This document shows positions 17,999 through 40,495 of a stretch of 64,000 nt of DNA, in pieces. Below the pieces are notes generated by a model. It was not told the DNA's origin. It was given only the letters and a program-made list of their open reading frames with translations, and did not search any database. Each line of letters opens with the position of its first letter. Within the stretch, counting starts at the first letter, position 1. The DNA is from Sneathiella sp. (GTDB taxonomy: Bacteria; Pseudomonadota; Alphaproteobacteria; Sneathiellales; Sneathiellaceae). The translations under genes and the position numbers were made by a program. The DNA lies in contig NZ_DAIUFV010000001.1 of assembly GCF_036844445.1 (NCBI RefSeq), positions 244,727 through 308,726 on the forward strand, written 5' to 3'.

Positions 17999-18058
17999 AC
18001 CCCGCATCGGACCGCCGCCCGAGCCGCGGCGGTCCGGCTGGTGGCGAAAGGAGCTTAC

Positions 18059-19860: not shown

Positions 19861-19886
19861 GACCGGGTTGCGGTGATGCTGATATA

Positions 19887-23085: not shown

Positions 23086-24668
23086 CTCTTCTTGGCCCAG
23101 TAGGGCGCGCGGAGCTCGCGCTTCATGATTTTGCCGAGCGTGCTGCGCGGCAGTTCCTTCCGGAACTCCATCGCGTGAAGCCGCGCCGTTTTGCTGAGCC
23201 GTTCGTTGGCCCACGTCTGCAGCGCTTCTTCGTCAATCTCTGCGCCCGGAACTTTGACGACAATCGCGAGCGGGCTTTCGCCCCATTTGCTCGGAATGCC
23301 AATAACCGCCACCTCCTGCACGGCAGGATGCTGATAGAGAACCGCTTCGATATCGGCGGCATAGATGTTGAATCCGCCCGAGATGATCATATCCTTCTTG
23401 CGATCGAGGAGGATCAGGAAGCCATCCTCATCGAGCTTGCCATAGTCGCCCGAGCGGTAGAAGACATCGCCATTTTCATCTTTCCAGACCAGCTCCTCGG
23501 TTTTGTCGGGTTGCTTGTGATAGCCCTTCATCATCATCAGCGGCGACCTGCCGACAACCTCGCCGACTTCCCCCGCCTTGAGGCTGTTGTTATCGGCATC
23601 GAGAATGCGAAGATCGACGGAGAGACCGGCTTTGCCGACGGTATGGAGCTTGTCGGGATGGGCACTGGCATCCAGCACGGTGCCGGGCCCGCCTTCGGTC
23701 AGGCCGTAAAGCTCAACCAGCCGGCCCGGCCAGCGATCGAGGATTTCTTTCTTGAGGCCCGCATCCATCGGCGATCCGGCGGTGAATTTGGTGCGAAACG
23801 CCGAGAGATCCGTGGCACCGAATTCCTTGAGGGCGAGCAGCCGCTGATACTGCACTGGGACCAGCATGGCGTGGGTGACGCGATAGTGCTCGCAAAGGGC
23901 GAGATATTCCGCTTCCCTGAACTTCTCCATCAGGATAACGGTTCCGCCATGAGCGAGAGCCGGGAGCATGCCGGCGAGCGTGAAGTTGCCATAGATGGGG
24001 GTCGAGACGATGGAAACTGTCGTGTCGTTGAAATCGAATGCTGCGAAGCGCACAGGCAGCGCCGAGCGCATCGAGTGAACGTGAATGATGCCCTTGGGGA
24101 GGCCCGTCGTGCCGGAGCTGTAGATGATGTTGAACTCATCGTCCGCCGCGATCTCCATCAAAAATGGATCGGACGGAGCCGCATTGAGCGCCGCACGGTA
24201 AGGGATCCAGCCGGGTGCCCGGAAGTCGAGCGCGATTTTACCGCCCTCCAGAAGCCCGTCGAGGCGCGGCTCGATTGCCGCGATGTTCGCGTAAAAACCT
24301 TCCGCGAGGAAAATCGCCTTCGTATCGGCATCGACGATCATGCGTTCAAGCGCATCGGTTGCGGTCATGGTGGAGAGCGGGACCGCGACGGCGCCGGCTC
24401 GCAAAATCCCCATAAAGGCAGTCAGATAGAGAGGCGAGTTCAGGCCGAGGATCGCGACCTTGTCGCCTTTTCGGATGCCGAGGGCGGCGAGGTAGTGCGC
24501 CGTCCGGTCGACATCGCGGTCAAAATCGCGCCAGCGCGTGACCTGATGATTGAAAATGACCGCCGCCTTCTCCGGCGTGCGTTGCGCCGCCCGGCGGATG
24601 CTGTCGGGGATGGCGATAAAGGGCGGAAGTGGTGTCTCGAGCGCGGTATTTCCCATCGTGCGTGTCAC
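23082..24668 (-). CDS. AMP-dependent acyl-CoA synthetase/ligase
   Basis: IIYSSGTTGLPKGI (AMP-binding motif I), YGLTEGG, YRSGDYGKLDEDGFLILLDRKKDMII and a C-terminal GKIMKRELR. Confidence 0.92.
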   Translation of the reverse strand: MTRTMGNTALETPLPPFIAIPDSIRRAAQRTPEKAAVIFNHQVTRWRDFDRDVDRTAHYLAALGIRKGDKVAILGLNSPLYLTAFMGILRAGAVAVPLSTMTATDALERMIVDADTKAIFLAEGFYANIAAIEPRLDGLLEGGKIALDFRAPGWIPYRAALNAAPSDPFLMEIAADDEFNIIYSSGTTGLPKGIIHVHSMRSALPVRFAAFDFNDTTVSIVSTPIYGNFTLAGMLPALAHGGTVILMEKFREAEYLALCEHYRVTHAMLVPVQYQRLLALKEFGATDLSAFRTKFTAGSPMDAGLKKEILDRWPGRLVELYGLTEGGPGTVLDASAHPDKLHTVGKAGLSVDLRILDADNNSLKAGEVGEVVGRSPLMMMKGYHKQPDKTEELVWKDENGDVFYRSGDYGKLDEDGFLILLDRKKDMIISGGFNIYAADIEAVLYQHPAVQEVAVIGIPSKWGESPLAIVVKVPGAEIDEEALQTWANERLSKTARLHAMEFRKELPRSTLGKIMKRELRAPYWAKKS

Positions 24669-25087
24669 CCTTTGAAACCGATCGCCTGTCCGACCGCGAC
24701 CTTGTCGCCACGCTCGTTTTCAACCCAGATATCAAGCTCGACGCGCTGGCGTCCATTCTCCGGTGCGATCCTGGCGACGATCCCGCTGACGCTGAGCACA
24801 TCATCGCGGCTGAGGAGATTGGTAAAGCTGACGTTCAGCTCGCCGCCCTGCACCCAGTCGGGGCCGAAAAACTCGGTGGCGATCTGCGAGAGATAGCCGT
24901 AGGCCATCAGCCCCTGCGGCGCGGCAACCTTGAGGCCGATTTTCTGCGCGAGATGGTCATGGGTGTGAAAACTCTCGTTCGGCAGCGAGAAGAGCCGCGC
25001 CTTGGTGATCGACATCTGGATCGCACGGGTCGGCAGCTTCATCCCGCTGTAGATCTCGCCCTCACTTTGCTCTGCTCGGCTTGTCAT
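24665..25087 (-). CDS. MaoC-like hotdog-fold dehydratase subunit
   Basis: NESFHTHDHLAQKIGL...APQGLM resembles the MaoC hydratase motif. 140 aa. 4-nt overlaps with both neighbouring genes. Confidence 0.75.
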   Translation of the reverse strand: MTSRAEQSEGEIYSGMKLPTRAIQMSITKARLFSLPNESFHTHDHLAQKIGLKVAAPQGLMAYGYLSQIATEFFGPDWVQGGELNVSFTNLLSRDDVLSVSGIVARIAPENGRQRVELDIWVENERGDKVAVGQAIGFKG

Positions 25088-25587
25088 TTCGTCTCTCCGC
25101 TTGCGATGCCCCGGATCGGGGCATGGCTTCGAACCATGATAGTGTGCCGGTATTCAGCGATCTGCGCGCCTTCCCGCGTTGAAAAGAGCGCCTCGATCAC
25201 CACAAATTCGCGCGCCCGGCGGATATATTTTTCGCATATCCCGACCTTTGCGACGATCTCCTCGCCGGCCTTGAAAGGGCTTATGAAGCGGGCGTGGGTC
25301 TTCGCATGCAGATATGGATATTCGAAGAGGTTCGGAAACTGATCCATGAACATTTTGAAATGACCCACCGCCCCTTCCTCCTGAATATAAAAGCCCTGCG
25401 GCCACCAGATATAGGTGGAGAGAACGACCGGATGGGCGAGCGGCGCTTTCGGGTCGCCGAGCAACCAGCCCGTCTCGTCGTCGACCCCGTAGCCGAGCTT
25501 CTTGATGGATTCGATCGTCGGGCGGAACCTTACCGTCCCGAGGGAGTAGGGAACCGGAAGGGTCTCGAATGTGACATCTTCATTCAT
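25084..25587 (-). CDS. Hotdog-fold protein (MaoC N-terminal-like partner subunit)
   Basis: About 167 aa starting MNEDVTFETLPVPYSLG. The size, its position and the 4-nt overlap with the MaoC-like gene suggest a heteromeric hydratase. The ORF-track extension to 25755 is rejected. Confidence 0.55.
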   Translation of the reverse strand: MNEDVTFETLPVPYSLGTVRFRPTIESIKKLGYGVDDETGWLLGDPKAPLAHPVVLSTYIWWPQGFYIQEEGAVGHFKMFMDQFPNLFEYPYLHAKTHARFISPFKAGEEIVAKVGICEKYIRRAREFVVIEALFSTREGAQIAEYRHTIMVRSHAPIRGIASGETK

Positions 25588-25777
25588 ATGTTTCTGATAT
25601 CTCGCTGGACGGTGGCGCTTGCGGCTATGGGTTGGGCCGGGGGCAGGTTTCGCTATCCCGTTTCTTATTTTACTTATTAACCAACCACTAAATAACATAG
25701 GGCTGATATCGCCGCAAGCGATCCATGCGGCCGTGAGACATTTGCCGCGCTGCACCGTTAGAGGCGCGGCGCTTGAG

Positions 25778-26530
25778 TCAGAAAGCTTGCCAGAAGAAAA
25801 TCGCGCTCATAGTGAAACCGATCAGGGCGATAATGGCGCGGATCACCGGGCGCGGCAGGGCGCGGGCAATGGGTGCGCCCGCATAGCCGCCGATAAGTGC
25901 GGCAATCATCATCAGGATCGCCTGATACCAGAGCACAAGGCCGCCGACCGCGAAAATCGCGACGGAAATGGTCGAGAGAATAAATGACAGCCCGTTTTTC
26001 AGGCCGTTCATCTGATGCAGGTCGGTCATCCCCCAAAGCGCAAACACCGCGAGCAGGACAATGCCGAGCCCGCCGTTGAAATAGCCGCCATAGATGCAGG
26101 AAACAAAGAGGGTGATGACAGGCAGCGCCCGGCCCGACCCGGCGTAACGGGCGGCGAATTGGCTGAGCTCCTTGCCATAGAGGAAGATGAGCGTCGCGCC
26201 GAGGAGCAGAAAGGGCACGATCAGCGAAAACGCCTCGTTGGAGGAGATGAGCAGCAAGAGCGAGCCGACAGCGCCTCCGGCCAGCGTGATGGCGGTATAG
26301 AGCAGCAGGGTTCGCCGCGGAAAGCGGCCGATCTCTTTTCGGAAGCCGAAGGTGCCGCCGAGATAGCCCGGAAAGACGGCAACCGCGCTCGTCGCGTTGG
26401 CGACGACAGGCGGAATCCCTGTAAAGACAAGGGCGGGAAAGGTGAGGAAGGTTCCCCCGCCCGCGATCGTATTCAGAACTCCGGCGCCAAAGGCGGCGAG
26501 CATAATAAGCACTATGTCGAAAAAAGGCAT
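25778..26530 (-). CDS. TauE/SafE-family (DUF81) anion exporter membrane protein
   Basis: MPFFDIVLIMLAAFGAGVLNTIAGGGTFLTFPALVF plus repeated Gly-rich TM helices typical of TauE/SafE. Start set at ATG 26530. Confidence 0.8.
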   Translation of the reverse strand: MPFFDIVLIMLAAFGAGVLNTIAGGGTFLTFPALVFTGIPPVVANATSAVAVFPGYLGGTFGFRKEIGRFPRRTLLLYTAITLAGGAVGSLLLLISSNEAFSLIVPFLLLGATLIFLYGKELSQFAARYAGSGRALPVITLFVSCIYGGYFNGGLGIVLLAVFALWGMTDLHQMNGLKNGLSFILSTISVAIFAVGGLVLWYQAILMMIAALIGGYAGAPIARALPRPVIRAIIALIGFTMSAIFFWQAF

Positions 26531-26705
26531 TTGTTTACTTGCGGGATCCCCGAAAAGGCGGGCGACCGGCGGCGATATGGGGTTTCGGGATACCTCTGGT
26601 TTAGCCCTTTCAACCCCGCGTGTCATTGTTTCTTTTCATCTCCCGCGAACGGATGGCGGGTGTCCGAGGTACTCACACAGCAGGTCGGCGGCGGATCGGC
26701 GCCTG

Positions 26706-27731
26706 CTAGGGGCGCGGCGCGGCGGTGCTGCCGCGAACGGTCAGGGTCGCGGTCGCGATCGAGGAGTGCTGCTGATTGGTGAGCTTTCCGGAATCTATAT
26801 GATGCAGGAACCAAAGTCCACAGGTCGTGGCCAGATCCTCGATCGGCATCCAGAGGGTGGTGAGGCCCGGGCCCCACCATTTGAACTCCGGCGCATCGCC
26901 AAAGCCGACGAGCGAGAGGTCGCCGGGGACGGAGATCTGCATCTCGTGCAGCGTCTCCAGAATGGCCTGGGTGACGCGGATTGTCCCGGTGATCAGCGCC
27001 GTCGGCGGGTTGGGGCGGTTCAGGAGTTCCTTGACCGCGTTGGCGCCGTATTGGGTGATCGAGGGAGGGCCGAAAATCTCGATCGCCTCGCTGCGGTCAA
27101 CGCCCATTTCCTGAAAGGCCCGGCGAAATCCCGCCCGCCGCGCCGTTCCGGTCGAGAGCTCAAGCGAGCCGCCAATATAGGCGATGCGGCGATGCCCGAG
27201 CGAGAGCAGGTGCCGCGTGCCTTCGCAGAGGCATTCCTCGTCATTGATGCCAAACCAAGCGGAGTTGTAGCTCTCGATCCGGCGGAGCAGCTGGACGTGC
27301 GGAAAATTATTGATGAGATCACGCGTCTCGCGCTTGGGCTGCGCGGTCGGGACAATGACGATGCCGGCCGCCCGCGCGCTGATCAGCTCGGTCACGTGAC
27401 GCGCTTCGGTTTCAGGATCATTGGCGATGGAGAGCGCGAGCTGGTATCCGTTCGCGCTGCAGCAGTCCGAGAGCGCCTCGGCAATCGTGGCATAGAAATA
27501 GTTGCGGATATCGGGGAGCATCAGCCCGACGAGATTACTTTTTGCCCCCCGCATCTGCCGGGCGGGCAGGTTGCCGACATAGCCGAGCTGGCTTGCCGCC
27601 TCCTTGACACGGGTAATCGTTTTCGCGCTGATCCGCGGATCGCCCGAGAGGGCGCGCCCGACCGTCGAGACCGAAACGCCGGCGATCTCGGCAACGTCGC
27701 GCGCGGTGACCATCCTGAATGATTTTGTCAT
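26706..27731 (-). CDS. LacI-family transcriptional regulator
   Basis: HTH segment VTARDVAEIAGVSVSTVGRALSG followed by NLVGLMLPDI and a sugar-binding-like core. Start at ATG 27731 after ggaaggg; an upstream ATG at 27761 would overlap the dehydrogenase gene. Confidence 0.9.
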   Translation of the reverse strand: MTKSFRMVTARDVAEIAGVSVSTVGRALSGDPRISAKTITRVKEAASQLGYVGNLPARQMRGAKSNLVGLMLPDIRNYFYATIAEALSDCCSANGYQLALSIANDPETEARHVTELISARAAGIVIVPTAQPKRETRDLINNFPHVQLLRRIESYNSAWFGINDEECLCEGTRHLLSLGHRRIAYIGGSLELSTGTARRAGFRRAFQEMGVDRSEAIEIFGPPSITQYGANAVKELLNRPNPPTALITGTIRVTQAILETLHEMQISVPGDLSLVGFGDAPEFKWWGPGLTTLWMPIEDLATTCGLWFLHHIDSGKLTNQQHSSIATATLTVRGSTAAPRP

Positions 27732-27753
27732 ATCCCTTCCGGCTTTTGCAGCA

Positions 27754-28692
27754 TCAGACAACCCTGTTGAGCACCGGCTCGCCCGTCCGGATGCGTCGGC
27801 AGTTCTCCTCGATCACCGCAAGGCTGCGGTCAATTGTTTGCGGCGTCAACCACGCAATATGCGGCGTCATCACGACATTCGGAAATTCCTTGAGCCGCCC
27901 GGCATCACGCAGCGGCTCGGCGGCAAAAACATCGAGCCCGGCGCCCGCCAGCCGGCCGGAGGCGAGGGACGCGGCAAGCGCGGCTTCATCGACAAGTTCC
28001 CCGCGCGCGGTATTGACAAGAATGGCGCCCGGTTTCATCCGGCCAAAGGCCGCCGCATTCAGGATATGGCGCGTCTCGGGCGTCGCGGGGATATGGAGCG
28101 AGAGAATGTCGCTGGTTGCGAGAAGCTCCTCGAAGGAGACGGCTTCGGCGATCGCATCCGGCTTGGGTGTGCGGCTCCAGTACTGCAGTTTCGCGCCGAG
28201 AGCGGTGAGCGGCGCCGCGAGCCGCATCCCGACCGCCCCATAGCCGACGAGCCCGACCGTGCTGCCGCTGATCTCGCCGATCGCTTCCGCGTCGTTGGGC
28301 GACAGCTGCCAGCCCTCGCCGATGCGCGTCGCACTGTCGAATGTGGTCATGCGGCGGAGCGTCGCCAGCATCAGGGCGAGGGTGTGTTCGGCGACGGCGG
28401 CCGTGTTAGTGCCCGGCATGTTGGCGACGATCACGCCGGCCTTTTTTGCGGCGTCAAGATCGATCGTATTGACCCCGATGCCAATCTTCTGGATCAGCTT
28501 CAATTGCGGCCCTTGCGCAATCATGTCGGCACTTACCGGCTTCAGGCAATGCAAAAGCACGTCAGTGTCCGGGATCTCGCGGATGAAACCGGCTTCATCC
28601 TGCTCGTCGATCACCGTGATCTCGATATCTTCTATCGTCGCAAGTCGCTTTTTCAGCCTGTCGCTGGCGGAAAACTGCAATAAAGCCTTCAA
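27754..28692 (-). CDS. D-isomer-specific 2-hydroxyacid dehydrogenase (glyoxylate/hydroxypyruvate reductase-like)
   Basis: GLVGYGAVGMRLA (GxGxxG), ILVNTARGELVDEAAL (catalytic Arg), GAGLDVFAAEP (Glu) and VVMTPHIAW (His). TTG start overlapping the enolase stop (TTGA). Confidence 0.88.
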   Translation of the reverse strand: MKALLQFSASDRLKKRLATIEDIEITVIDEQDEAGFIREIPDTDVLLHCLKPVSADMIAQGPQLKLIQKIGIGVNTIDLDAAKKAGVIVANMPGTNTAAVAEHTLALMLATLRRMTTFDSATRIGEGWQLSPNDAEAIGEISGSTVGLVGYGAVGMRLAAPLTALGAKLQYWSRTPKPDAIAEAVSFEELLATSDILSLHIPATPETRHILNAAAFGRMKPGAILVNTARGELVDEAALAASLASGRLAGAGLDVFAAEPLRDAGRLKEFPNVVMTPHIAWLTPQTIDRSLAVIEENCRRIRTGEPVLNRVV

Positions 28693-30008
28693 CGTCTCTC
28701 TCCTCGGGCCCGCTCTGGAATTGCTGAGGCGAAGACCAGCCCCTCGCGTCCGGCAAACCGCGCACGCGATCCGAGGGCCTCTTCAATTCTCAGGCATTCG
28801 TTCCATTTTGCCATGCGTTCGGAGCGAGCGAAAGAGCCCACCTTGAATTGGCCCGCATCCCAGCCGGTGGAAAGATGCGAGATAATGACATCTTCCGTCT
28901 CGCCGGAGCGGGCGGAAACGATCGTGCCGAGCCCTGCCGCCTTGGCCGCTTCGAGCGCCTTGCGGGTCTCTGTAATCGTCCCGGCCTGGTTCGGCTTGAT
29001 AAGCACGGCGGTGAGCGCCTTGTCGGCCGCCGCCCGGGTGACACGCGCGGCGTTGGTCACGAGATAGTCATCGCCAATAATCTGGCAGGTCGCGCCATAA
29101 AGCCGCGTGAAGGTCTGAAAGCCTTTCGGATCATCCTCGCTCAACGGATCTTCGATGGAAAGGATCGGGTAGGTCTCAAGCCAGCCGCCTAGGATGGAAA
29201 TCCACTCGTCGGTTTCATATTTCTTGCCGCCGAGGGCGAGGGTGTAAAGGCCGTTCCGGCCAAATTCCGAGGCCGCCACGTCAAGCGAGATGGCAACGTC
29301 TTCGCCGGGCTTGAAGCCGGCGCGCTCGATCGCAAGAACAAGCGTATCGAGAATCTCCTCGTTCGATCCGAATGCCGGCCAATAGCCGCCTTCATCGGCG
29401 ACCCCCCGCAGGCTGCCGCGCTCCTTCATTAGCGCGCCGGCGGCGAGATAGACCTCGGCCGTCCAGTCGAGCGCCTCGGAGAAGGATGTCGCGCCCGGAC
29501 ACATGATCATGAAATCCTGGATATCGACGCGCCGCGCCGCATGCGCGCCGCCGCCGAAAATCTGGATCTCGGGGAGCGGCATGCGAATATCCCGCCCGCC
29601 CGAGAGATAGAGCCAAAGCGGCAGTTTCTCGGCCGCCGCGCGCGCCTGCAATACCGCCATGGAGGTGGCAACGATGGCGTTGCCGCCAAGCCGGGCGCGA
29701 TCGGGCGTGCCGTCGAGCCGCACCATCGCACCGTCGACCTCTTCCTGGTGATCGGCGTCAAGGCCGATCAGGCAGGCGCTGATCTCCTCATTCACGGCGG
29801 CCACGGCGCGGCGCACATCAAGGCCGCCAAAGGCCTTGCCGCCGTCGCGCAAATCAACCGCTTCGCCGCTTCCCATCGACGCGCCGGCGGGCGCGATGGC
29901 CCGGCCCGTCGCGCCGCAGCCAAGGCGCACGTCCACCTCGACCGTCGGTCGCCCGCGCGAATCCCACACCCGCCGTCCAAAAACAGATTTGATTGTTGTG
30001 TCAGTCAT
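28689..30008 (-). CDS. Enolase-family protein (true phosphopyruvate hydratase family), divergent paralog
   Basis: Collinear with enolase: DSRGRPTVEVDV, PAGASMGSGEAVDLRDG, VADEGGYWP, SLDVAASEF, SIEDPL, IGDDYLVTN, LIKPNQAG, SARSGETED, GQFKVG and ECLRIEEALG. It reads IQDFMI and SARSGETED where canonical enolases read QEFMI and SHRSGETED. Confidence 0.85.
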   Translation of the reverse strand: MTDTTIKSVFGRRVWDSRGRPTVEVDVRLGCGATGRAIAPAGASMGSGEAVDLRDGGKAFGGLDVRRAVAAVNEEISACLIGLDADHQEEVDGAMVRLDGTPDRARLGGNAIVATSMAVLQARAAAEKLPLWLYLSGGRDIRMPLPEIQIFGGGAHAARRVDIQDFMIMCPGATSFSEALDWTAEVYLAAGALMKERGSLRGVADEGGYWPAFGSNEEILDTLVLAIERAGFKPGEDVAISLDVAASEFGRNGLYTLALGGKKYETDEWISILGGWLETYPILSIEDPLSEDDPKGFQTFTRLYGATCQIIGDDYLVTNAARVTRAAADKALTAVLIKPNQAGTITETRKALEAAKAAGLGTIVSARSGETEDVIISHLSTGWDAGQFKVGSFARSERMAKWNECLRIEEALGSRARFAGREGLVFASAIPERARGERR

Positions 30009-31002
30009 TTGCTAGGTTCCTTGCCCACACATCACGCAGTTCCGCCAGTCGGGTCGGAGGCGACTCGACAAAGGGCAGGGCCGTCATTCTGATTTTTTCT
30101 TTATCAATTTCATTGGTAATGTACTCAACCGGTGATTTTCCATCAACGCGTGCGAGAAACAAAGCCGGCAGCAGGCGCGCAACACGCGCCTCGAGCGCGT
30201 CCCGAGACTCCCATCCGACTTCATTGAAATAGGCGTCTTTCAAGGCGTCAAAGGCGCGGAGCAGGACGTCCCGCGCGCCCGGCATATGCACGCATTTGAG
30301 AAGCAGGTGATTGAGGCAGAAGGCAAGATCAAAGGCCGGCTCCCCGTACCAGGCGCATTCCGCATCGAGAAAGACAGGGCCCTCGCGGCCCATCAGGATA
30401 TTCTTCGGGCTCACGTCGCCGTGGACAAGCACGGTTTCCGCGCCAAGCGTCGCTTCGGCAAGGCAGAGAAGGCGCTCTGCAACCGCGCCATGCACGCGCG
30501 CGGTTGCTTTCAGGTAAGGCTCGATCCGCAGGGCATCGAATGTTTCGGGTACCCTGAATTTATCGGCGAGGCGGGGCGAGTGCGCGGTTGCCTGATGGAT
30601 GGCGCCGAGGCTTGCGCCCACCTTGGCCGCGAAGGCGATATCGACATCGCCGTCCATAAGCTGTGTTTTCCATGTCGGATAGTCGAGAAATTCCATGGCG
30701 AAGAGGGCGGATGCGGGCTCGGAATAGAGAATATCCGGAACGGCCTCGGGGCGGATTTCGCGAACTTCGCGGATCCAGTTCACTTCATTGGCGTTGCGAG
30801 AGAGTGGCGCCTCCCAATGCTGCGAGACGCGAAGCTCCGCAAGCGCCCGCTTGAGCACAAAACGGCGCGCGCCTGCGTCAATTCTCCAGATGTCCGAAGA
30901 AATGCCGCCGGTCAGCCGCTCGGCGCGGATGGCGGAGATATTCTCCGCCAGTCCGCTCCGTTTGAGAAACTCGCCCGTCTCCTGGTCAAGCATCGGTGTC
31001 AC
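30001..31002 (-). CDS. APH-fold small-molecule kinase (aminoglycoside phosphotransferase / methylthioribose kinase-like)
   Basis: LTGGISSDIWRI nucleotide-loop region, the Brenner motif HGDVSPKNIL, and FLDAECAWYGEPAFDLAFCLNHLLLK, which resembles the MtnK IDxEFAFYGPxGFDxG segment. 8-nt overlap (ATGACTGA) with the enolase-like gene. Confidence 0.8.
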   Translation of the reverse strand: MTPMLDQETGEFLKRSGLAENISAIRAERLTGGISSDIWRIDAGARRFVLKRALAELRVSQHWEAPLSRNANEVNWIREVREIRPEAVPDILYSEPASALFAMEFLDYPTWKTQLMDGDVDIAFAAKVGASLGAIHQATAHSPRLADKFRVPETFDALRIEPYLKATARVHGAVAERLLCLAEATLGAETVLVHGDVSPKNILMGREGPVFLDAECAWYGEPAFDLAFCLNHLLLKCVHMPGARDVLLRAFDALKDAYFNEVGWESRDALEARVARLLPALFLARVDGKSPVEYITNEIDKEKIRMTALPFVESPPTRLAELRDVWARNLAND

Positions 31003-31014
31003 AGGTTACTCCTC

Positions 31015-32358
31015 TCAGAACATCGTGCCGGGCAGCAGCAATGAGATGATCGGGAAAGCGATCAGCAGATAGAGTACTACCAGATCGGACATGATGAACA
31101 ATATACAGCCCTTAAAGATCTGGTTGAGCGGCACCGCGTCACCGACGACCGATTTGATAACAAACACGTTGATCCCGACGGGCGGCGTCATTAGGCCGAC
31201 CTCAATCAGCTTGACGATGATGATCCCGAACCAGATCAGGTCATAGCCGAGGGTTTCAATGATCGGAACCGCCAGCGGCAGCGTCAGCAGCAGAATGCCG
31301 ATGGCGTCAAGGAACGTGCCGAGGATCAGATACATGGCGCAGATCATGAACAGCACCAGCGCGGGCGAGAAGTTCTGTGCGTTTGTCCAGGCGACCAGAT
31401 CACTGGCAATCCCGGTGATGCCGACGAAAGAGACCATTAGCTTTGCGCCGATGGCAAGGACGAAGATGATCGCGCACTGGAAGGTCGTTTCACGAACTGC
31501 GTCCCAGAAGCCCTCCCACGTCAGCCGCTTCAGCAGGAAGCCGATGACGATCGTGACGCCCGCCGCGACTGCCGCCGATTCCGTCGCGGTCAGAATGCCG
31601 GTGTAGACGCCGCCGATGACGATGATGGCGATCAGCGTGATCGGCCAGATGCGGAGCAGCGCCTGAAGCTGTTCGCGGCCTGTTGCCGTGATATGGTTCT
31701 CCGGTGCCGCCTCGGGCCGTGCTTTCACCCAGACCAGAACAATGATGACATAGCCGACGACACTGATCAGGCCGGGAAGAATGCCGGCGACGAACAGCTT
31801 GCCGATCGACTGCTCGGTGAAGACACCGTAGAGCACCAGCACGAGGGAGGGCGGGATCAGTGAGCCAAGCGTGCCGCCGGCCGCAACCGATGCCGTGGCG
31901 AGCGATTTGCTGTAACCGAAGCGCAGCATTTCGGGAACCGCGATGCGGCCCATCGCCGAGGCGCAGGCCATGCTGGAGCCGGTGATCGACGAGAAGCCGG
32001 CGCAGCCGACGACCGAGGCAATCGCGAGACCGCCCGGCAGGCGCGGCAGCAGAATACGGATGGTATAGAAGAGATCTGTCGTGAACCTTGCCTTATGCGC
32101 GACATGGCCAAGCACGATAAAGAGCGGCACCATGGTGAAGGTGTAGGTCTTGATAAAGGAGAAGGGGTCGGTGCCAAGAAACGCCTGCACGGGCCGCATC
32201 GCGCGCGCCGGGTTGAAAGCCCCGCCCGGCGGCCAGGCGAAGATGATAAACATGCCGATGATGGAAACGGCGCAAAGCGCAAATGCAATCGGCACACGCA
32301 AAAACAGGAGGATCAGCAGGCCCGCGAGCACAGCAATCGCAAGGGTAGTCGGGTCCAT
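31015..32358 (-). CDS. TRAP transporter large permease (DctM family)
   Basis: 447-aa polytopic protein with SSITGSSMACASAMG, LIPPSL, GILPGLI and MTPPVGINVF segments. Confidence 0.9.
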   Translation of the reverse strand: MDPTTLAIAVLAGLLILLFLRVPIAFALCAVSIIGMFIIFAWPPGGAFNPARAMRPVQAFLGTDPFSFIKTYTFTMVPLFIVLGHVAHKARFTTDLFYTIRILLPRLPGGLAIASVVGCAGFSSITGSSMACASAMGRIAVPEMLRFGYSKSLATASVAAGGTLGSLIPPSLVLVLYGVFTEQSIGKLFVAGILPGLISVVGYVIIVLVWVKARPEAAPENHITATGREQLQALLRIWPITLIAIIVIGGVYTGILTATESAAVAAGVTIVIGFLLKRLTWEGFWDAVRETTFQCAIIFVLAIGAKLMVSFVGITGIASDLVAWTNAQNFSPALVLFMICAMYLILGTFLDAIGILLLTLPLAVPIIETLGYDLIWFGIIIVKLIEVGLMTPPVGINVFVIKSVVGDAVPLNQIFKGCILFIMSDLVVLYLLIAFPIISLLLPGTMF

Positions 32359-32392
32359 TGTTACAGTTACCTTTCTGGGACGGGTTTCGCGG

Positions 32393-32953
32393 TTACGAAA
32401 GCAGGTCTTGGGCGGCGTCTGGATAGACGATGCGCTTTTTCAGGTTCAGATCTTCCAGCAGGTTCAGCAGCAGCCGGATGCAGAACAGGGCAACCGCAAT
32501 CACGAAAACAAGTTTCGCCGGCCACACCGGAAGATACAGCTCGCCTTCGTAATACTGACCGCTGTTCCAGTCCTTGACGACGCCGAGCCAGACACACCAG
32601 AGAATGGTGGAGAAAATGACTAGGGCGATTAGATGCGCGAGCGCGCTGAGCGCCTGAAAATATTTCTTCGGCAGCCAGGCGGTGAAGACCTCAACCTCGA
32701 TATGCGCGCGCCTTGCCGTCGCATAGGCGAAGGGAAGGGCGATTATGATGGGCATCAGGTTTTCCGCGAGCACCACATCGTCAGGGATAGGAAGATGAAA
32801 AAACGTTCTGCCCGCGACGGAAAGGCAAATCAGGGCGAGCAGGAGGACGGTCGTCAGCATCGAGATTTTGAGAAACACCGTCTCGATGCTGCCGATGACG
32901 CGTTCGACGAGAGAAACTCCCGTCGAACCGTCGTCAAGCTTGAGGCGAACCAT
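32393..32953 (-). CDS. TRAP transporter small permease (DctQ family)
   Basis: 186-aa four-TM protein between the SBP and DctM genes. Its start overlaps the SBP stop (TGATG). Confidence 0.85.
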   Translation of the reverse strand: MVRLKLDDGSTGVSLVERVIGSIETVFLKISMLTTVLLLALICLSVAGRTFFHLPIPDDVVLAENLMPIIIALPFAYATARRAHIEVEVFTAWLPKKYFQALSALAHLIALVIFSTILWCVWLGVVKDWNSGQYYEGELYLPVWPAKLVFVIAVALFCIRLLLNLLEDLNLKKRIVYPDAAQDLLS

Positions 32954-34062
32954 CAGCTTTTGCCTTTATCCCACGGATAGCCGTTCTTGTTGAAATCGGC
33001 CTGATACTTATCGATCAGTTGCTGATAGTGATCCGCAACTTCGCGGGCGGGGAGGCCCTTTTTGGAGACGTTGGCAATCCACTCCTCGGCGAGGATCGCA
33101 CCATATTTCTTGACCTCGTCTAGCATGCCGGGCGGCGGAGGCGAGTAGATGACGCCAAATTCGCCGCCGGGGGCGGAAAGCTCGGCTTTGGCTTCAACAA
33201 CGCGGATGAGATGATCTTCAACGATATGGGCGTTCAGGTCGTTGGCGACCTCGCGGATCACCTTTTTGCGCTCGTCGCTGAGCTCATCCCAGAAATCCTT
33301 GTTCATGATGATGCCGTAGGCCATGACCAGCCCGAAGTCGATCTCGATCACATGCTTGGCGATTTCATACTGCCGGTAGCCCTTGATGGCGAGGTGATAG
33401 ATCTGGTTGCAATCGACAAGGCCGGTCTGCAATGCCTGATAGACTTCGGTCTGCGGCATGGCGATGGTCGTCGCGCCCATGTTCTTCAAGACTTCGGTGT
33501 AGGGGCCGCCCGTCCGGATCTTGAGGTTTTTCAGCTCGTCGAGGGAATTGATTGGCGCCTTGCAGATGAGCTGGACGTTCCCGGCATTGAAGTTGGCGAT
33601 ATATTCGATGTTGTTGCGCGCGAACTGCTTCTTCACATCCTCGTTGGTGGTGGCGAGTTCATAGATCGCCTGCTGCGCGACCCAGAGGTTCGACGGGCCG
33701 ATCAGCAGGTTACCAACCTCGTAAAGATCGAGAACGCCGGGGGTGTAGGAGGAAACGATCGATCCCATGTCGGCGAGGCCGGCGCCGACGATGCGCGGGA
33801 TATCGGCGGGTGCGCCAAGCGAGCCGCCCCAGTGAATGTCGAAGATGATGTCGCCGCCCGAGCGGCTTTCGATCTGTTCCTTAAACCACATGATATTGTC
33901 GCCCATGCCGCCGCGGTTGGCGCCGAAATGCGCGTAGCGGATCGAGATGGGGTCAGCGTTTGCGCTAAGAGGCGCTGCCACAACGGCTGTCACGGCGGCG
34001 ACTATGCCCGCGATGAGGCGTGTCGAGCGTCGTAACGGTTTCCAGAATGCTTTGATTTTCAT
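32953..34062 (-). CDS. TRAP transporter substrate-binding protein (DctP family)
   Basis: Signal peptide STRLIAGIVAAVTAVVAAPLSANA, then ISIRYAHFGA...FKEQIESRSGGDI, a DctP-like body. Confidence 0.85.
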   Translation of the reverse strand: MKIKAFWKPLRRSTRLIAGIVAAVTAVVAAPLSANADPISIRYAHFGANRGGMGDNIMWFKEQIESRSGGDIIFDIHWGGSLGAPADIPRIVGAGLADMGSIVSSYTPGVLDLYEVGNLLIGPSNLWVAQQAIYELATTNEDVKKQFARNNIEYIANFNAGNVQLICKAPINSLDELKNLKIRTGGPYTEVLKNMGATTIAMPQTEVYQALQTGLVDCNQIYHLAIKGYRQYEIAKHVIEIDFGLVMAYGIIMNKDFWDELSDERKKVIREVANDLNAHIVEDHLIRVVEAKAELSAPGGEFGVIYSPPPPGMLDEVKKYGAILAEEWIANVSKKGLPAREVADHYQQLIDKYQADFNKNGYPWDKGKS

Positions 34063-34100: not shown

Positions 34101-34120
34101 TTATGCAATTGATAGCATAA
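34101..34120. promoter_or_regulatory. Inverted repeat TTATGC-N8-GCATAA in the 5' region of the minus-strand TRAP/kinase/enolase operon
   Basis: 6-bp perfect arms in an AT-rich stretch about 40 nt upstream of the dctP start. Candidate binding site for the LacI regulator at the operon end. Confidence 0.3.
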
Positions 34121-34182: not shown

Positions 34183-34218
34183 TTGACAGGAAAGGGGGTG
34201 GATTGCATAAAAATGCAA
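34183..34218 (+). promoter_or_regulatory. Candidate sigma70-type promoter with overlapping operator for the FAH operon
   Basis: TTGACA (34183-34188), 17-nt spacer, CATAAA (34206-34211). The inverted repeat TTGCAT-AAAA-ATGCAA (34203-34218) overlaps the -10 element. Confidence 0.35.
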
Positions 34219-34260
34219 ACGAAAGCATTACAATAACAGAATAAAATCGGGAGTATCGTT

Positions 34261-35175
34261 ATGACGTCACCAACGCGGTATGGGCTTTGCACGATCCAGA
34301 CGGACGCCGGGGCCACGCCGGCAATTGCGGTGGGGGGGAAACACTGGGAATTGGCGAAGGTCGCGCCGGAAATTAGACTTCCAGACGGGCTTATGAGCCT
34401 CTTCCCGGACTGGCAGGCGAGCGAGTCGGCACTTGCGAAGGTCGCCGATGCCATCGCCGCCGGCAAACATGGCGAGGGATTTGCTGTTGCCGATGACAAG
34501 TTCCTGCCGCCGCTGATGTATCCCGGAAAAGTCGTCTGCGCAGGCACTAACTATATTGATCATATCCATGCCGTCGGCCGCACCAGCTTCAGCAAGGAAG
34601 AGAATATCCCCGCAATGTTCATGAAGCCGCCGAAATCGGCGCTCGTCGGTGGGGGGCGGACAGCCCGCATTCCCACCAACTGCACGATGTATGACTGGGA
34701 GATCGAGCTCGGCGTCGTCATGGGCAAGCGCATCGATGTCGGAACGCCGGTCAGCCGCGATTTGAACGAGATTGCCGGCTATATGCTGACGCTCGATATG
34801 TCGGCGCGCGATTTCCAGCGCAACCCCAAGCATTTCGCGAAATCCGATCTTTTCATGGGCAAGGCGTTCGACACGAGCTGCCCTTCTGGTCCCTATTTCG
34901 TGCCGGCGAAATTCATCCCCGATCCGCAAGATCTCGATATGAAACTCTGGCGGAATGACAAGGTTGAACAGGATTCCAACACGAAGAACATGATCTGGTC
35001 GGTCTATGAGCTGTTGCAGGCGCTAACCGAGAATGTGACGATGGAGCCGGGAGATCTGTTCCTGACCGGAACGCCTGCCGGCACCGGGATCGAGACCGGC
35101 ACCTACGCGAGCCGCGGCGACAGGATCGAGGCGGAAATCGAGCATCTTGGCCGTCTCAGGATCGAACTCTACTAA
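34261..35175 (+). CDS. Fumarylacetoacetate hydrolase (FAH) family protein
   Basis: KVVCAGTNYIDH, FMKPPKSAL, YDWEIELGVVMGK (metal-binding Glu pair) and LTGTPAGTG. Confidence 0.88.
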   Translation: MTSPTRYGLCTIQTDAGATPAIAVGGKHWELAKVAPEIRLPDGLMSLFPDWQASESALAKVADAIAAGKHGEGFAVADDKFLPPLMYPGKVVCAGTNYIDHIHAVGRTSFSKEENIPAMFMKPPKSALVGGGRTARIPTNCTMYDWEIELGVVMGKRIDVGTPVSRDLNEIAGYMLTLDMSARDFQRNPKHFAKSDLFMGKAFDTSCPSGPYFVPAKFIPDPQDLDMKLWRNDKVEQDSNTKNMIWSVYELLQALTENVTMEPGDLFLTGTPAGTGIETGTYASRGDRIEAEIEHLGRLRIELY

Positions 35176-35205: not shown

Positions 35206-36024
35206 ATGTTGACACAGGCAAAGGGCTGGGGCCCGGACGGCAAGCGCGCCGCCATCAGTATCACCTTTGACAACATGGGGGAGGCGTCGGAGCTGGAGCG
35301 CGGCCAGCCCCCCGTCATGGGGCCGAGCGGGAAGCATTCCTCGCTCGAAATTCTGCCCGATCTTCTCCGCATCCTCGACGGATCGAAAATCACCTATTTC
35401 GTCGAGGGGCTGAACTGCGAGATGTACCCGGATGTGATCCGGAGCGTTCAGGCGGCCGGCCATGAGATCGGCGTGCATGGCTGGCGGCATGAAAACTGGG
35501 GCACGACGGACGCGGCGCGGCGCGAGGATGCGCTCAAGCGCTCCGTCGCCGCCTTCCGAAGCCTCGGCGTTGACGTCAGGGGCTTCCGCCCGCCCGGCGG
35601 GAAAGTCGATGCGGCGGAGCTTCGCAAGGAGTGCCTCGCGGTCGGCCTCAACTTCGCCTCGCCGCTTGGCGATATCGGCGATGATACGAAGGACGCAGGC
35701 TTCACCTCTCTCCCGTTCGCGTGGCAGCATGTCGATGCCTATATGCTGCATCCCGGGCTGGGCGCGCTCCGTCAGATGTTCGGCGACCCCGAAGAGCCGA
35801 TCTCCTATGACGAGTGGGGCGGTGTTGTTGACGAGCTGATCCGGAAAGTCAAACGCGAAGGCGGCCACGCAACGCTTATTTTCCACCCCTCCATGCTGGT
35901 CCAGAGCGAGAGAGCCGTTGAGATATTTGCGCAATTCGTGAAAACTGTGCGCGAGGATGCGGACATCTGGGCGCCGACCTGCAGCGAACTTGTCGGCTGG
36001 CTATCTGAAAACGGGCATAGCTGA
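35206..36024 (+). CDS. Polysaccharide deacetylase (NodB-homology, CE4-like) family protein
   Basis: AISITFDNMGE (NodB motif 1, reading TFDN rather than TFDD) and GHEIGVHGWRHENW (HxxxH motif 2). Confidence 0.75.
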   Translation: MLTQAKGWGPDGKRAAISITFDNMGEASELERGQPPVMGPSGKHSSLEILPDLLRILDGSKITYFVEGLNCEMYPDVIRSVQAAGHEIGVHGWRHENWGTTDAARREDALKRSVAAFRSLGVDVRGFRPPGGKVDAAELRKECLAVGLNFASPLGDIGDDTKDAGFTSLPFAWQHVDAYMLHPGLGALRQMFGDPEEPISYDEWGGVVDELIRKVKREGGHATLIFHPSMLVQSERAVEIFAQFVKTVREDADIWAPTCSELVGWLSENGHS

Positions 36025-37791: not shown

Positions 37792-38991
37792 TTACTTTTT
37801 CGCCTGAAGCGTGATCTTATTCTCCAGCAGGCTGTCGATTTCCGCCTGGCTGAAGCCGGCTTCGCGGAGGATGTCGACGCTTTCCTGACCGAGATGCGGG
37901 GGCACCTTGCGGATCGAGGATGGCGTTTCGGAGAAGCGGATCGGCGGATCCATCATGCGAAGCGTTCCCTCCGTCGGATGTTCCACCAGTTTCCAGAAGC
38001 CGGAGGCGTTGAGCTGCTCGTCATTGAGCAGCATTTCCTTCGACATAACGGTCTGGACGGGGATATTCTTCTCATCGAGGATCTCCTGCCACTCGGCGCA
38101 GGAGCGGGTCGCGATGATGTCGGCAAGGGTGCCATAGACCTCTTCCGAATGGGTGATCCGGGCCGCAAAGGTCTTGAAAATCGGATCTTCCTTCAGCTCT
38201 GGCCGGCCAGCGATATCGAAGAGATCAAACCAGTTGCGATCGGTATAGGGCAGCACGGCAAGATAGCCGTCGGTCGTTTTGTAGGGCTTGCGCATGGTAT
38301 TGAGCAACCGCTCATAACCCATCTGGGCGATCGGCGGTTCAAACGCGGCGCCGTAGAGATGCTCGACCATGACGAAATCGACGAGCGCTTCAAACATCGG
38401 AACTTCAATCGCCTGTCCCTTGCCGCCGCGCTCGCGGTTGACGAGGGCGGCAAGAACCGCCATCACGAGGTTATAGGAGGAGGTCTTGTCAGCCATGATC
38501 GTCGGCACGTAGCGCGGCTGGTCCGAGGCGATGGTCATGAGATCGGTAACGCCCGACGCGGCCTGGATAATATCGTCATAGGCCGGCTTGTCGGCGAGCG
38601 GTCCCTCGGCGCGAAAGCCATAGGCGGCGCAGTAAATGAGGTTCGGGAAGCGGTCCTTGAAATTCTCATAGCCAAGGCCGAGCTTGCTGCAAACTTTCGG
38701 CCGCAGGTTATGGACGAACACGTCGGCCGTTTCGATCACCCGAAACAGCGCTTCTTTCCCCTCCGGCTTCGTCAGGTCGAGAACGATGCTGCGCTTGTTG
38801 CGGTTAGTCGCGAGAAAAAGCGAGCCCATGTTGGGATTGCGTTTCGGGCCGGACTGCCGCGTCGTATCGCCCTGCGGCGTTTCCACCTTGATGATATCGG
38901 CGCCCATATCGCCAAGGATCTGGGTTGCCCATGGACCCATAATGACCGTCGTCAATTCCACCACGCGAATGCCGTCTAACGTGCCTGCCAT
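37792..38991 (-). CDS. Class III CoA-transferase (CaiB/BaiF/Frc family)
   Basis: GIRVVELTTVIMGPWATQILGDMGADIIKVETP N-terminal signature. 399 aa. Confidence 0.9.
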   Translation of the reverse strand: MAGTLDGIRVVELTTVIMGPWATQILGDMGADIIKVETPQGDTTRQSGPKRNPNMGSLFLATNRNKRSIVLDLTKPEGKEALFRVIETADVFVHNLRPKVCSKLGLGYENFKDRFPNLIYCAAYGFRAEGPLADKPAYDDIIQAASGVTDLMTIASDQPRYVPTIMADKTSSYNLVMAVLAALVNRERGGKGQAIEVPMFEALVDFVMVEHLYGAAFEPPIAQMGYERLLNTMRKPYKTTDGYLAVLPYTDRNWFDLFDIAGRPELKEDPIFKTFAARITHSEEVYGTLADIIATRSCAEWQEILDEKNIPVQTVMSKEMLLNDEQLNASGFWKLVEHPTEGTLRMMDPPIRFSETPSSIRKVPPHLGQESVDILREAGFSQAEIDSLLENKITLQAKK

Positions 38992-39337: not shown

Positions 39338-40495
39338 TCAGCGTTTGCCCGGCAGGATCCCCATCTCCTTGCAGATGACCTGCAGCATCACCTCGTTGGC
39401 GCCGCCGCCGACGGCCGTCTGGCGCGCCTCGCGATAGATGCGGGTGATGAAATTGTCGTTCATGAAGCCCTGGCCGCCCCAGAACTGCGTCAGCTCGACA
39501 GGGATTTCCATCGACAGCCGGCCGATGAGATATTTCGCCATGCTGGCGAGCTTGGTGACATTCTCGCCTGCGACATACTTCTCGGTCGCCTGATAGAGCA
39601 GGGCGCGGACAGATTCGATCTTCGCCTGGAACTCGGCGATCTTGAAGTGGATGACCTGATTGTCGAGCAGCGGCTTGCCAAAGGCGACGCGCTGCGAGAG
39701 GTACTCGACCGTCTCCTCGATCGCGAGCTCCAGAAAGCGGATGGAGCGGGCGACGACGAACAGCCGCTCCTCCTGGAACTGCTCCATCTGATAGATGAAG
39801 CCCTTGCCTTCCTCGCCGATCAGGTTGCGCTGTGGCACCCGCACGTCATCGAAGAAGAGAAGGGCGGTGTCGGAGGATTTGTAGCCCACTTTGTCGAGCT
39901 TCTTGCCAACCGAGACGCCCTTCGCCTTCAGGGGCACGATGATCAGCGACTTGTTGCGATGCGGACCGTTCTCGGTCGAGGTATTGCAAAGCAGGCAGAT
40001 CCAGTCACCCTGCACACCATTGGTGATCCACATTTTCGAGCCGTTGATCACATAATCATCGCCGTCTTTGCGGGCGGTCGTCTTCAGATTGGCAACGTCT
40101 GAGCCTGCGCCGGCCTCGCTCACCCCAATGCAGCCGACGAGATCGCCTGCGATGGTGGGGGCGAGATATTCGCGCTTCAACTCTTCCGAGCCGTAGTTGG
40201 TGAGCGCCGGGGTGCACATATTGGTCTGGACGCCGATGGCGGAGCATATGCCCATGGTGCGGAGATTGCCAAGCTCTTCAGCGAAGGCGACCTCAAAGGA
40301 AAAGTCGAGCGCCGATCCGCCATATTCCACCGGCTTGCCGATGCCGAGCAGGCCCGCATCGCCGAGCCGCTTCATCACCTGATGGGCGGGGAAAATGCCT
40401 TCTTCCTCCCACTGGTCGATATGCGGGTTGATATGTTCATCGACAATCCGCCGGGTGACGCGACGGATTTCATCATGCTCATGGGTCCAGATCAT
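39338..40495 (-). CDS. Acyl-CoA dehydrogenase
   Basis: 385 aa with ACAD layout: EEGIFPAHQVMKRLGDAGLLG, GVSEAGAGSDVANLKTTA, KMWITNG and a C-terminal QVICKEMG-type helix. Confidence 0.9.
   Translation of the reverse strand: MIWTHEHDEIRRVTRRIVDEHINPHIDQWEEEGIFPAHQVMKRLGDAGLLGIGKPVEYGGSALDFSFEVAFAEELGNLRTMGICSAIGVQTNMCTPALTNYGSEELKREYLAPTIAGDLVGCIGVSEAGAGSDVANLKTTARKDGDDYVINGSKMWITNGVQGDWICLLCNTSTENGPHRNKSLIIVPLKAKGVSVGKKLDKVGYKSSDTALLFFDDVRVPQRNLIGEEGKGFIYQMEQFQEERLFVVARSIRFLELAIEETVEYLSQRVAFGKPLLDNQVIHFKIAEFQAKIESVRALLYQATEKYVAGENVTKLASMAKYLIGRLSMEIPVELTQFWGGQGFMNDNFITRIYREARQTAVGGGANEVMLQVICKEMGILPGKR

Follow-up and report, generated by a model that had tools for sequence, protein, structure and literature searches.

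A conserved kinase–enolase pair within a TRAP-transporter operon of Sneathiella and a candidate route from a hydroxy-acid to phosphoenolpyruvate

A 64-kb stretch of the genome of a Sneathiella species, a marine alphaproteobacterium, was analysed (contig NZ_DAIUFV010000001.1; the whole 64,000 nucleotides are called the window below), and the subject of this work is a seven-gene operon on its minus strand in which a small-molecule kinase is followed by an enolase paralogue. The seven open reading frames (ORFs) were, in order, dctP, dctQ, dctM, the kinase gene, the enolase-like gene, a dehydrogenase gene and lacI, and the Pfam and NCBIfam models agreed with every family. The first three genes encode the solute-binding subunit (dctP, 32953-34062; PF03480, 1e-31, and NF037995), the small membrane subunit (dctQ, 32393-32953; PF04290, 6e-21) and the large membrane subunit (dctM, 31015-32358; PF06808, 1e-79, and TIGR00786 with 278 bits against a cut-off of 268) of a tripartite ATP-independent periplasmic (TRAP) transporter, so that all three components lie in consecutive genes. 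They are followed by a kinase of the aminoglycoside phosphotransferase (APH)/MtnK fold (30001-31002; PF01636, 1e-16), which we propose to be a 2-kinase of glycerate or a related 2-hydroxy-acid, and by the enolase-family paralogue (28689-30008; Enolase_N, PF03952, and Enolase_C, PF00113), a proposed 2-phospho-acid dehydratase that would yield phosphoenolpyruvate (PEP). A short D-2-hydroxyacid dehydrogenase resembling SerA/phosphoglycerate dehydrogenase (PGDH) comes next (27754-28692; PF02826 and PF00389) and is a putative hydroxypyruvate, or more generally 2-oxo-acid, reductase. The last gene encodes a LacI-family repressor with an N-terminal helix-turn-helix domain (PF00356) and a periplasmic-binding-protein-like effector domain (PF13377); it spans 26706-27731 from an ATG or 26706-27761 from an upstream TTG, and the ATG at 27731 was preferred over the TTG at 27761, with a ribosome-binding site, GGAAGGGA, lying 5' of the ATG.

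The genes are tightly packed. An overlap of 1 nt (TGATG) joins dctP to dctQ, and gaps of 34 nt and 12 nt separate dctQ from dctM and dctM from the kinase gene, respectively. The kinase and enolase genes overlap by 8 nt (ATGACTGA), the enolase and dehydrogenase genes by 4 nt (TTGA), and 22 nt lie between the dehydrogenase gene and the ATG of lacI. A first-pass annotation of this DNA had listed these seven genes and six junctions, and the ORF coordinates together with a direct reading of the sequence confirmed all of them. No sigma-70-like promoter match was found on the coding strand from dctP through lacI, and terminator-like matches in the operon region were not in excess (7 against 8.1 expected from shuffled sequence). 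A megablast search of the 7.4-kb region against plasmids gave no match.

The distribution of these genes was determined by scanning a one-genome-per-species collection with an alignment of the kinase; at least 578 matches were confirmed and 80 loci were kept. In 13 of 95 sources the kinase escaped our own ORF calling, which was imperfect on these GC-rich loci; adjacency was therefore counted by tblastn, and the counts of neighbouring families given below are lower bounds. The enolase paralogue was present in 76 of the 80 kinase loci, and in 69 of them the two genes were adjacent on the same strand, 60 times in the order kinase-enolase and nine times in the order enolase-kinase. A D-2-hydroxyacid dehydrogenase adjoined the pair in 37 of the 80 loci and was at least 45% identical to the window copy in 28 of those 37. 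The predicted operon in most genomes consisted of kinase and enolase, with or without the dehydrogenase, and most loci held a bare bicistron without a downstream partner; the full seven-gene arrangement was seen outside the window only in Sneathiella chinensis (locus L007). Carriers were found among Alpha-, Beta- and Gammaproteobacteria, Acidobacteria, actinomycetes and one Methylomirabilales genome, the plasmid collection added Rhodococcus, haloarchaea and one Bacteroidota strain, and many copies of the pair lay on plasmids or chromids.

Kinase and enolase have also diverged together, as the two distance matrices were correlated with a Mantel r of 0.51 and 0 of 999 permutations reached as high a value. 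Natural kinase::enolase fusions were found as well, in which an N-terminal APH domain is joined by a short in-frame linker to a C-terminal enolase; they formed two independent groups on eight contigs in total, one of 770 residues (P0268 and P0409, six contigs) and one of 745 residues (P0324). From the adjacency, the correlated divergence and the fusions it follows that the functional core is the kinase-enolase pair and not the seven-gene set; the TRAP transporter and the gene order are specific to Sneathiella. The expectation that kinase and enolase stay adjacent in other genomes thus held across several phyla, haloarchaea included. To this conserved pair the dehydrogenase and a hydrolase may or may not be added.

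The kinase carried two invariant motifs, an HGDxSPKN catalytic loop and an LDAE metal motif, and K51, H194-G-D196-x4-N201 and D213 were invariant among 20 kinase homologues, as expected of APH/protein-kinase-like enzymes. An AlphaFold2 model (mean pLDDT 93) gave MtnK as the best fold match, with TM scores of 0.80-0.84 at 16% identity, followed by PsiK and the lanthipeptide kinase LxmK, and a sequence search of solved structures returned weak MtnK matches only. The protein failed the MtnK equivalog TIGR01767 (55.5 bits against a cut-off of 275) and stayed below the gathering score of the fructosamine-kinase family, and no mtnA, mtnB or mtnD neighbour was found in 94 loci. With the MtnK model failed and no salvage-gene context, a role in methionine salvage was rejected. 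Pfam and NCBIfam returned APH-type families alone, with no match to a glycerate-kinase family. Glycerate kinases are known in three unrelated folds, namely GlxK/GarK, MOFRL/TtuD and the plant-type P-loop GLYK; the present kinase, if it is a glycerate kinase, would by its sequence belong to no known class. The first-pass annotation had named a bona fide methylthioribose or aminoglycoside kinase as an outcome that would count against its proposal, and these comparisons spoke against that identity.

Public annotation gives a different picture of the pair. Thousands of proteins from Alpha- and Betaproteobacteria are at least 70% identical to the enolase-like protein, and every one is labelled phosphopyruvate hydratase; the window protein itself scored 462 bits on TIGR01060, above the NCBI equivalog cut-off of 300. 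The kinase family is equally large and carries no name, while some sources label its members 5-methylthioribose kinase or fructosamine-3-kinase. These labels would suit a locus without any dedicated pathway, in which a redundant glycolytic enolase stands by chance beside an unrelated kinase of the methylthioribose, aminoglycoside or fructosamine type. We regard such an accident as very unlikely: it is contradicted by the adjacency across phyla, the overlapping stop and start codons, the fusions and the correlated divergence, by the kinase scores just given, by the invariant signature that the enolase clade has of its own (see below) and by the many copies on plasmids or chromids.

Two loci departed from the usual pairing. 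On an Enterobacter chuandaensis plasmid (L089, 8917-18906), a distant kinase homologue with 40% identity was found without any enolase. The cluster around it has a biosynthetic appearance and encodes a U32 peptidase, an M14 peptidase, an NAD(P) oxidoreductase, an aminotransferase, a nucleotidyltransferase and a major facilitator superfamily (MFS) transporter, so that the kinase family must serve in at least one further role. On plasmid p1 of Azospirillum brasilense Sp7 (L093, 8947-13253), small ORFs and a transposase follow the kinase in place of the enolase, and a PEP-mutase-family gene, an iron-dependent alcohol dehydrogenase, a TRAP system, a PhyH dioxygenase and a GntR regulator lie upstream of it. 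The module seems to have been disrupted or rearranged here.

The window enolase, the only enolase-like gene in the window, was 47-48% identical to solved enolases and has the architecture of a canonical enolase. Its active site was compared in yeast-enolase numbering, in which the expected residues landed at the expected numbers; the comparison set consisted of 50%-identity cluster representatives drawn from 1.8 billion proteins, of which 78 were canonical and 38 were full-length paralogues. S39, H159, Q167, E211, D246, E295, D320, K345, R374, S375 and K396 were kept in the window protein and in every kinase-linked homologue, and they include the metal ligands (D246, E295, D320), the base (K345), the acid (E211) and the phosphate-binding residues (R374, S375, S39, H159). 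With these residues kept, the enzyme is predicted to bind a 2-phospho-carboxylate, to abstract a proton and to carry out a beta-elimination. L-2-phosphoglycerate was rejected as a substrate on stereochemical reasoning, as the conserved metal and arginine sites fix the carboxylate and phosphate and the C2 proton would then point away from Lys345.

Three other positions set the paralogues apart. E168 and H373 were present in 78 of 78 canonical representatives, and D168 with A or G at 373 in 38 of 38 paralogues; position 155, an asparagine in canonical enolases and S or G in the paralogues, was the only other discriminating site. The window protein has D165, A366 and G152 here, corresponding to E168D, H373A and N155G; it thus passes the NCBI enolase model but lacks a defining feature of canonical enolases. 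All kinase-linked homologues likewise carry E168D, H373A/G and N155S/G. Each change replaces a larger residue by a smaller one, all three fall in one corner of the active site beside the C3-hydroxyl/water site, and D168 is invariant. A neighbour-joining tree placed 37 of the 38 paralogues, together with 11 further-diverged variants and no canonical enolase, in one 48-member clade. The designation of this enolase as a divergent paralogue was thereby substantiated on two counts, a distinct clade and altered active-site residues. Work on yeast enolase, attributed to Reed et al. in 1996 and Brewer et al. in 1997, reportedly showed that E168 is required for hydroxide elimination, the step at which an E168Q variant stalls with its activity lowered about 10^5-fold, and that substitutions of H373 also decrease activity. 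The D168/A373 clade also includes further-diverged sequences that lack Glu211, Lys345 or Arg374 (P0278, P0384, P0316, P0263, P0280 and others); judged by these losses, they may be additional neofunctionalised or inactive enolase-like proteins.

Such a remodelled pocket raises the question of the substrate. The same chemical logic, i.e. reduction of a 2-oxo group, phosphorylation of the 2-hydroxyl and an enolase-type beta-elimination, could operate on a C3-substituted acid such as 2,3-dihydroxybutanoate, tetronate or tartrate and give an enol phosphate other than PEP. This would account for the finding that only N155S/G, E168D and H373A/G, which enlarge the pocket, separate the 38 paralogue from the 78 canonical representatives, and for an enolase clade that is old and monophyletic; the near-obligate pairing and the fusions likewise hint at a kinase product that the housekeeping enolase is unable to accept, and TRAP and tripartite tricarboxylate transporter (TTT) carboxylate transporters recur beside the pair. 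On the other side, no new positive residue was found that could bind an extra carboxylate, and a dedicated consumer of an unusual enol phosphate was absent from most loci. Together with the genomic contexts described below, these points make a C3-substituted acid a somewhat unlikely substrate in our judgement. A broader statement may be entertained tentatively, although we hold it to be doubtful on balance: that D168/A373 enolases are not 2-phosphoglycerate enolases at all, and that a second specificity, for a C3-substituted 2-phospho-hydroxy-acid or an unusual leaving group, exists in the supposedly isofunctional enolase subgroup, with the substrate supplied by a new APH-fold hydroxy-acid 2-kinase. 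If this were true, the pair, in some cases one fused protein, would serve generally for the ATP-coupled dehydration of 2,3-dihydroxy acids without recourse to the iron-sulfur and mandelate-racemase-type dehydratases.

The remaining enzyme and the transporter gave less specific information. The best equivalog for the dehydrogenase was PGDH, with 211 bits against a cut-off of 454, and with both Pfam domains present no named specificity was reached; its closest solved relatives are PGDH and glyoxylate/hydroxypyruvate reductases. Dehydrogenases linked to the pair came from two subfamilies, one SerA-like and the other annotated as C-terminal binding protein (CtBP-like). For DctP the closest solved relative was 4n6d, with 100 bits only, and a ligand cannot be inferred because the solved or ligand-bound TRAP relatives are too distant; the orthologue in S. 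chinensis was 71% identical. Three more DctM-like large-subunit genes were present on the plus strand of the window (6479-8164, 45562-46869 and 62722-64000) and clustered with the operon dctM in an all-against-all comparison, so that the window holds at least four TRAP systems.

The regulatory region extended the system beyond the operon. Upstream of dctP, and divergent from it, lies a gene for an enzyme of the fumarylacetoacetate hydrolase (FAH) family (34261-35175, plus strand; PF01557, 3e-57), and the 198-bp intergenic region between dctP and this gene holds two of the four ATGC-N8-GCAT sites in the window. The dctP-proximal palindrome, ATGCAATTGATAGCAT at 34103-34118, is a probable LacI operator and has one mismatch in S. 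chinensis; the FAH-proximal one, ATGCAAACGAAAGCAT at 34213-34228, is a second probable operator and reads ATGCTAACGAAAGCAT in that genome. Both palindromes were kept in S. chinensis while the sequence around them had diverged. LacI orthologues with 48-81% identity were found in kinase/enolase loci of Sneathiella, Bosea, Rhizobium, Ralstonia, Cupriavidus and Burkholderia, those of the last four genera being 48-50% identical to the window LacI. A related palindrome, TGCTAACGTTAGCA, was found 5' of ppc-dehydrogenase-kinase and beside enolase, vicinal oxygen chelate (VOC) and FAH genes in Rhizobium, Ralstonia, Cupriavidus, Burkholderia and Caballeronia; its placements covered eight loci besides that of S. 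chinensis, and a LacI gene was present in all seven of them that were searched for one, the eighth being the Caballeronia locus (L004).

The related 18-mer matched 22 times in 1.73 Mb of loci, where about one match was expected by our own calculation. Twenty of these matches fell in nine kinase/enolase loci (a LacI orthologue was confirmed in all eight that were checked, the ninth being the Caballeronia locus), one was operator 2 of the window and one lay at 10914. The last corresponds to a near-perfect LacI-type palindrome, AATGATAACGTTATCATT at 10914-10931, which is remote from the operon and, from its sequence, presumably serves another LacI-family regulon encoded in the window.

Among the 129 genes within two positions of the pair, FAA_hydrolase was the commonest Pfam family with at least nine genes, followed by LacI, short-chain dehydrogenase/reductase (SDR), MFS, GntR, Gfo/Idh/MocA and UxuA. 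FAH relatives occurred in about 14 loci and stood directly beside the kinase or enolase in Rhodococcus, Paracoccus, Roseibium and Burkholderia pseudomallei. The closest solved structures to the window FAH protein were the L-2,4-diketo-3-deoxyrhamnonate hydrolase 8gsr and FAHD1. Because the operators are conserved and FAA_hydrolase is the most frequent neighbour family, the FAH gene and the two operators were added to the system, and the sequence makes it probable that the divergent gene belongs to the same regulon as the operon. The extent given in the first-pass annotation therefore stands for the seven genes, and the regulon appears to reach further, to an FAH gene that had been left outside. 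Downstream of FAH lies a gene for a polysaccharide-deacetylase-family hydrolase (35206-36024, plus strand; PF01522), a possible accessory; its orthologue, with 51% identity, adjoined FAH in S. chinensis and in no other locus.

The genomic contexts of the pair in other bacteria bear on the substrate. On Rhizobium plasmids, the operator is followed by ppc (PEP carboxylase), dehydrogenase and kinase genes, with the enolase gene nearby; by analogy, this set would supply the activities of the hydroxypyruvate-to-oxaloacetate segment of the serine cycle. A B. pseudomallei plasmid carries an SDR, two UxuA (mannonate dehydratase) genes, another SDR, a lactonase, FAH, kinase, enolase and a sugar ATP-binding cassette (ABC) transporter; read by analogy with known pathways, this cluster would amount to a complete oxidative pathway, with pyruvate and glycerate released by FAH from a 2,4-diketo-3-deoxyhexonate. 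Similar assemblies were found in Brucella haematophila (FAH, SDR, UxuA, kinase, enolase) and in Paracoccus seriniphilus and Roseibium (kinase, enolase, FAH, SDR). In Asaia the dehydrogenase, kinase and enolase genes are followed by a galactarate-type (GarD-type) dehydratase; in the E. coli gar pathway the corresponding step is carried out by the glycerate kinase garK. One Burkholderiales genome has a formate-tetrahydrofolate (THF) ligase after kinase and enolase, and on haloarchaeal plasmids the pair lies among mandelate racemase/muconate lactonizing enzyme (MR/MLE) sugar-acid dehydratases and aldolases.

By these analogies, several unrelated contexts seem to converge on glycerate and PEP. The sugar-acid, GarD and one-carbon (C1) contexts predict a C3 product and the ppc gene under the same operator in Rhizobium points to PEP itself, and both observations count against the C3-substituted acid considered above. 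In rhizobia and Burkholderiales the pair was also seen inside a larger island marked by LacI operators (L087 on Rhizobium pRspN324b, 7088-21534; L030, L034, L044, L068, L094 and L004), which, besides ppc and FAH, encodes an HpaD-like extradiol dioxygenase (276 bits, cut-off 321), an NAD(P)H oxidoreductase, a Zn-dependent alcohol dehydrogenase, a small cupin and an ABC importer of the branched-chain type; it may serve to break down an aromatic compound.

Taken as a whole, we consider it most likely, with somewhat better than even confidence, that the Sneathiella operon runs from hydroxypyruvate or D-glycerate through 2-phosphoglycerate to PEP, with a glycerate 2-kinase of a new, fourth kind and an enolase dedicated to the route. 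The TRAP system would import a carboxylic acid, and a C3 hydroxy-acid would be funnelled to PEP. In the proposed sequence the dehydrogenase would reduce hydroxypyruvate to D-glycerate, and may also oxidise the imported acid; the APH/MtnK-fold kinase would then phosphorylate the 2-hydroxyl of glycerate with ATP, and the translationally coupled enolase paralogue would dehydrate 2-phosphoglycerate to PEP. The FAH enzyme would probably yield the C3 acid by C-C hydrolysis or decarboxylation of a keto-acid precursor, and LacI is predicted to repress both transcription units through the two ATGC-N8-GCAT operators. Because most loci lack a gene to consume an exotic product, it is simplest to assume that a common metabolite, such as PEP, is formed. 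We infer from these sequences and contexts that glycerate is the substrate, which of its positions is phosphorylated and that PEP is formed, and likewise what FAH does and what the transporter and the repressor bind. The earlier proposal of a route from an acid to an enol phosphate, which would be PEP if the acid is glycerate, thus gained independent contexts that point to glycerate and PEP, while the substrate itself stays at the level of inference.

Several points weigh against this assignment. The dehydratase and SDR that would make the 2,4-diketo-3-deoxy acid for FAH are absent from the window, and the TRAP binding protein is too distant from ligand-bound structures for its ligand to be named. 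The three large-to-small changes in the enolase suggest, as far as residues can tell, a substrate, leaving group or inhibitor profile unlike that of the canonical enzyme. Ordinary D-2-phosphoglycerate would be served by the housekeeping enolase, yet the pair is almost obligately linked, and the weak point is that plain 2-phosphoglycerate should need no private enolase with a remodelled C3 pocket. Three speculative reconciliations can be offered: the pair may have been transferred as a self-sufficient module, the product may be channelled within a complex, or the paralogue may resist an inhibitor that the kinase could form from glycerate precursors, e.g. tartronate semialdehyde phosphate. This compound is a tight inhibitor of enolase.

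The altered pocket could also be read as room for a leaving group larger than hydroxide, with PEP still the product. A 3-sulfolactate pathway of this kind would proceed through 2-phospho-3-sulfolactate to PEP and sulfite, the reverse of the ComA reaction. Besides the enlarged leaving-group pocket, it could draw on a gene for a TauE/SafE (sulfite-exporter/TSUP) membrane protein (25778-26626, minus strand), which in this marine bacterium lies 79 nt downstream of lacI on the same strand, and the ppc linkage elsewhere fits a PEP product. TauE was, however, absent beside the pair in all other 94 loci, S. chinensis included, and its link to the operon is probably fortuitous; the sulfolactate pathway is weakened by this lack of recurrence. 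Moreover, no sulfite dehydrogenase or sulfonate genes recurred among the neighbours, elimination of sulfite to a trapped enol phosphate should be thermodynamically unfavourable, and a literature search returned no such route. We accordingly rate a sulfite leaving group as highly improbable, and the conversion of glycerate to PEP is kept as the preferred interpretation.

Other neighbours of the operon were recorded as well. Between an acyl-CoA synthetase gene and the TauE gene lie two ORFs of 140 and 223 residues without a Pfam match (24665-25087 and 25084-25755, minus strand), with a 4-nt overlap to each neighbour. Two minus-strand genes situated 3-5 kb from the operon (37792-38991 and 39338-40495) encode a family III CoA-transferase and an acyl-CoA dehydrogenase. 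The same two families, with 3-hydroxybutyryl-CoA dehydrogenase and electron-transfer flavoprotein (ETF) genes, flank kinase/enolase clusters of Rhizobium, Rhodococcus, Caballeronia and Burkholderia (L087, L088, L004 and L051); this co-occurrence could be either a coincidence or a sign of a linked pathway.

If the proposed function is correct, an APH/MtnK-fold glycerate kinase would be a fourth kind beyond the three known folds. For many Proteobacteria, Acidobacteria, actinomycetes and haloarchaea it would close gaps in the annotation of pathways for sugar acids, tartrate, galactarate, glyoxylate and C1 compounds. Public databases systematically mis-annotate the partner enolases under phosphopyruvate hydratase and glycolysis, whereas these form a separate, often plasmid-borne clade whose altered active site is invariant, and genome-scale metabolic models that count the paralogue as a second glycolytic enolase may be wrong. 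If the altered pocket instead reflects a new substrate, the enolase subgroup proper would have its first known case of functional divergence.

Among known systems, the L-rhamnose/L-fucose diketo-hydrolase pathway, in which a 4-dehydrogenase and an FAH-family hydrolase lead to pyruvate and L-lactate, resembles the surroundings of the pair in that its L-2,4-diketo-3-deoxyrhamnonate hydrolase is closest to the window FAH and that SDR and FAH flank the pair in Brucella, Paracoccus, Roseibium and B. pseudomallei. By analogy, the same chemistry on a hexonate would release glycerate instead of lactate. The known route, however, ends at lactate without kinase or enolase, and the window is without the dehydratase and SDR. 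MtnK offers the closest solved fold and common APH-type catalytic motifs, whereas the present kinase is 16% identical to it, about 60-70 residues shorter and without methionine-salvage genes nearby. The so-called enolase of methionine salvage is a RuBisCO-like or haloacid dehalogenase (HAD) protein and does not belong to the enolase family.

The serine cycle, with HprA, GckA, Eno and Ppc, is approached most closely by the Rhizobium plasmids, which combine dehydrogenase, 2-kinase, enolase and PEP carboxylase under one operator, and by the Burkholderiales genome in which formate-THF ligase follows the pair. The kinase here is non-homologous to that of the cycle, and the carriers are mostly not methylotrophs. 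In Sneathiella the module comes with a TRAP importer and a LacI repressor and so appears to serve catabolism and not C1 assimilation.

The glycerate kinases GarK and GlxK of E. coli make 2-phosphoglycerate (PMC4378991). Acting with the housekeeping enolase in glyoxylate, galactarate and tartrate catabolism, they share with the present system the proposed chemistry, in which D-glycerate and ATP would give 2-phosphoglycerate and then PEP. The difference is twofold: the kinase here is of an unrelated, APH/MtnK-like fold, and the enolase step would be carried out by a co-inherited, dedicated paralogue with an altered active site and not by the housekeeping enzyme. The Asaia pair adjoins a GarD-type dehydratase at the point where E. 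coli uses garK. No published account of an APH-type glycerate kinase or of a kinase-linked enolase subfamily was found in the full-text literature searched, which lacks most subscription journals, so that this absence is not proof.

Compared with canonical enolase (EC 4.2.1.11), finally, the paralogue has the same two-domain architecture, metal ligands, Lys345 base, Glu211 acid, Lys396 and phosphate-binding residues. It is distinguished by the invariant E168D, H373A/G and N155S/G changes, by a separate clade and by an obligate genomic partner to which it is sometimes fused, and it is often plasmid-borne.

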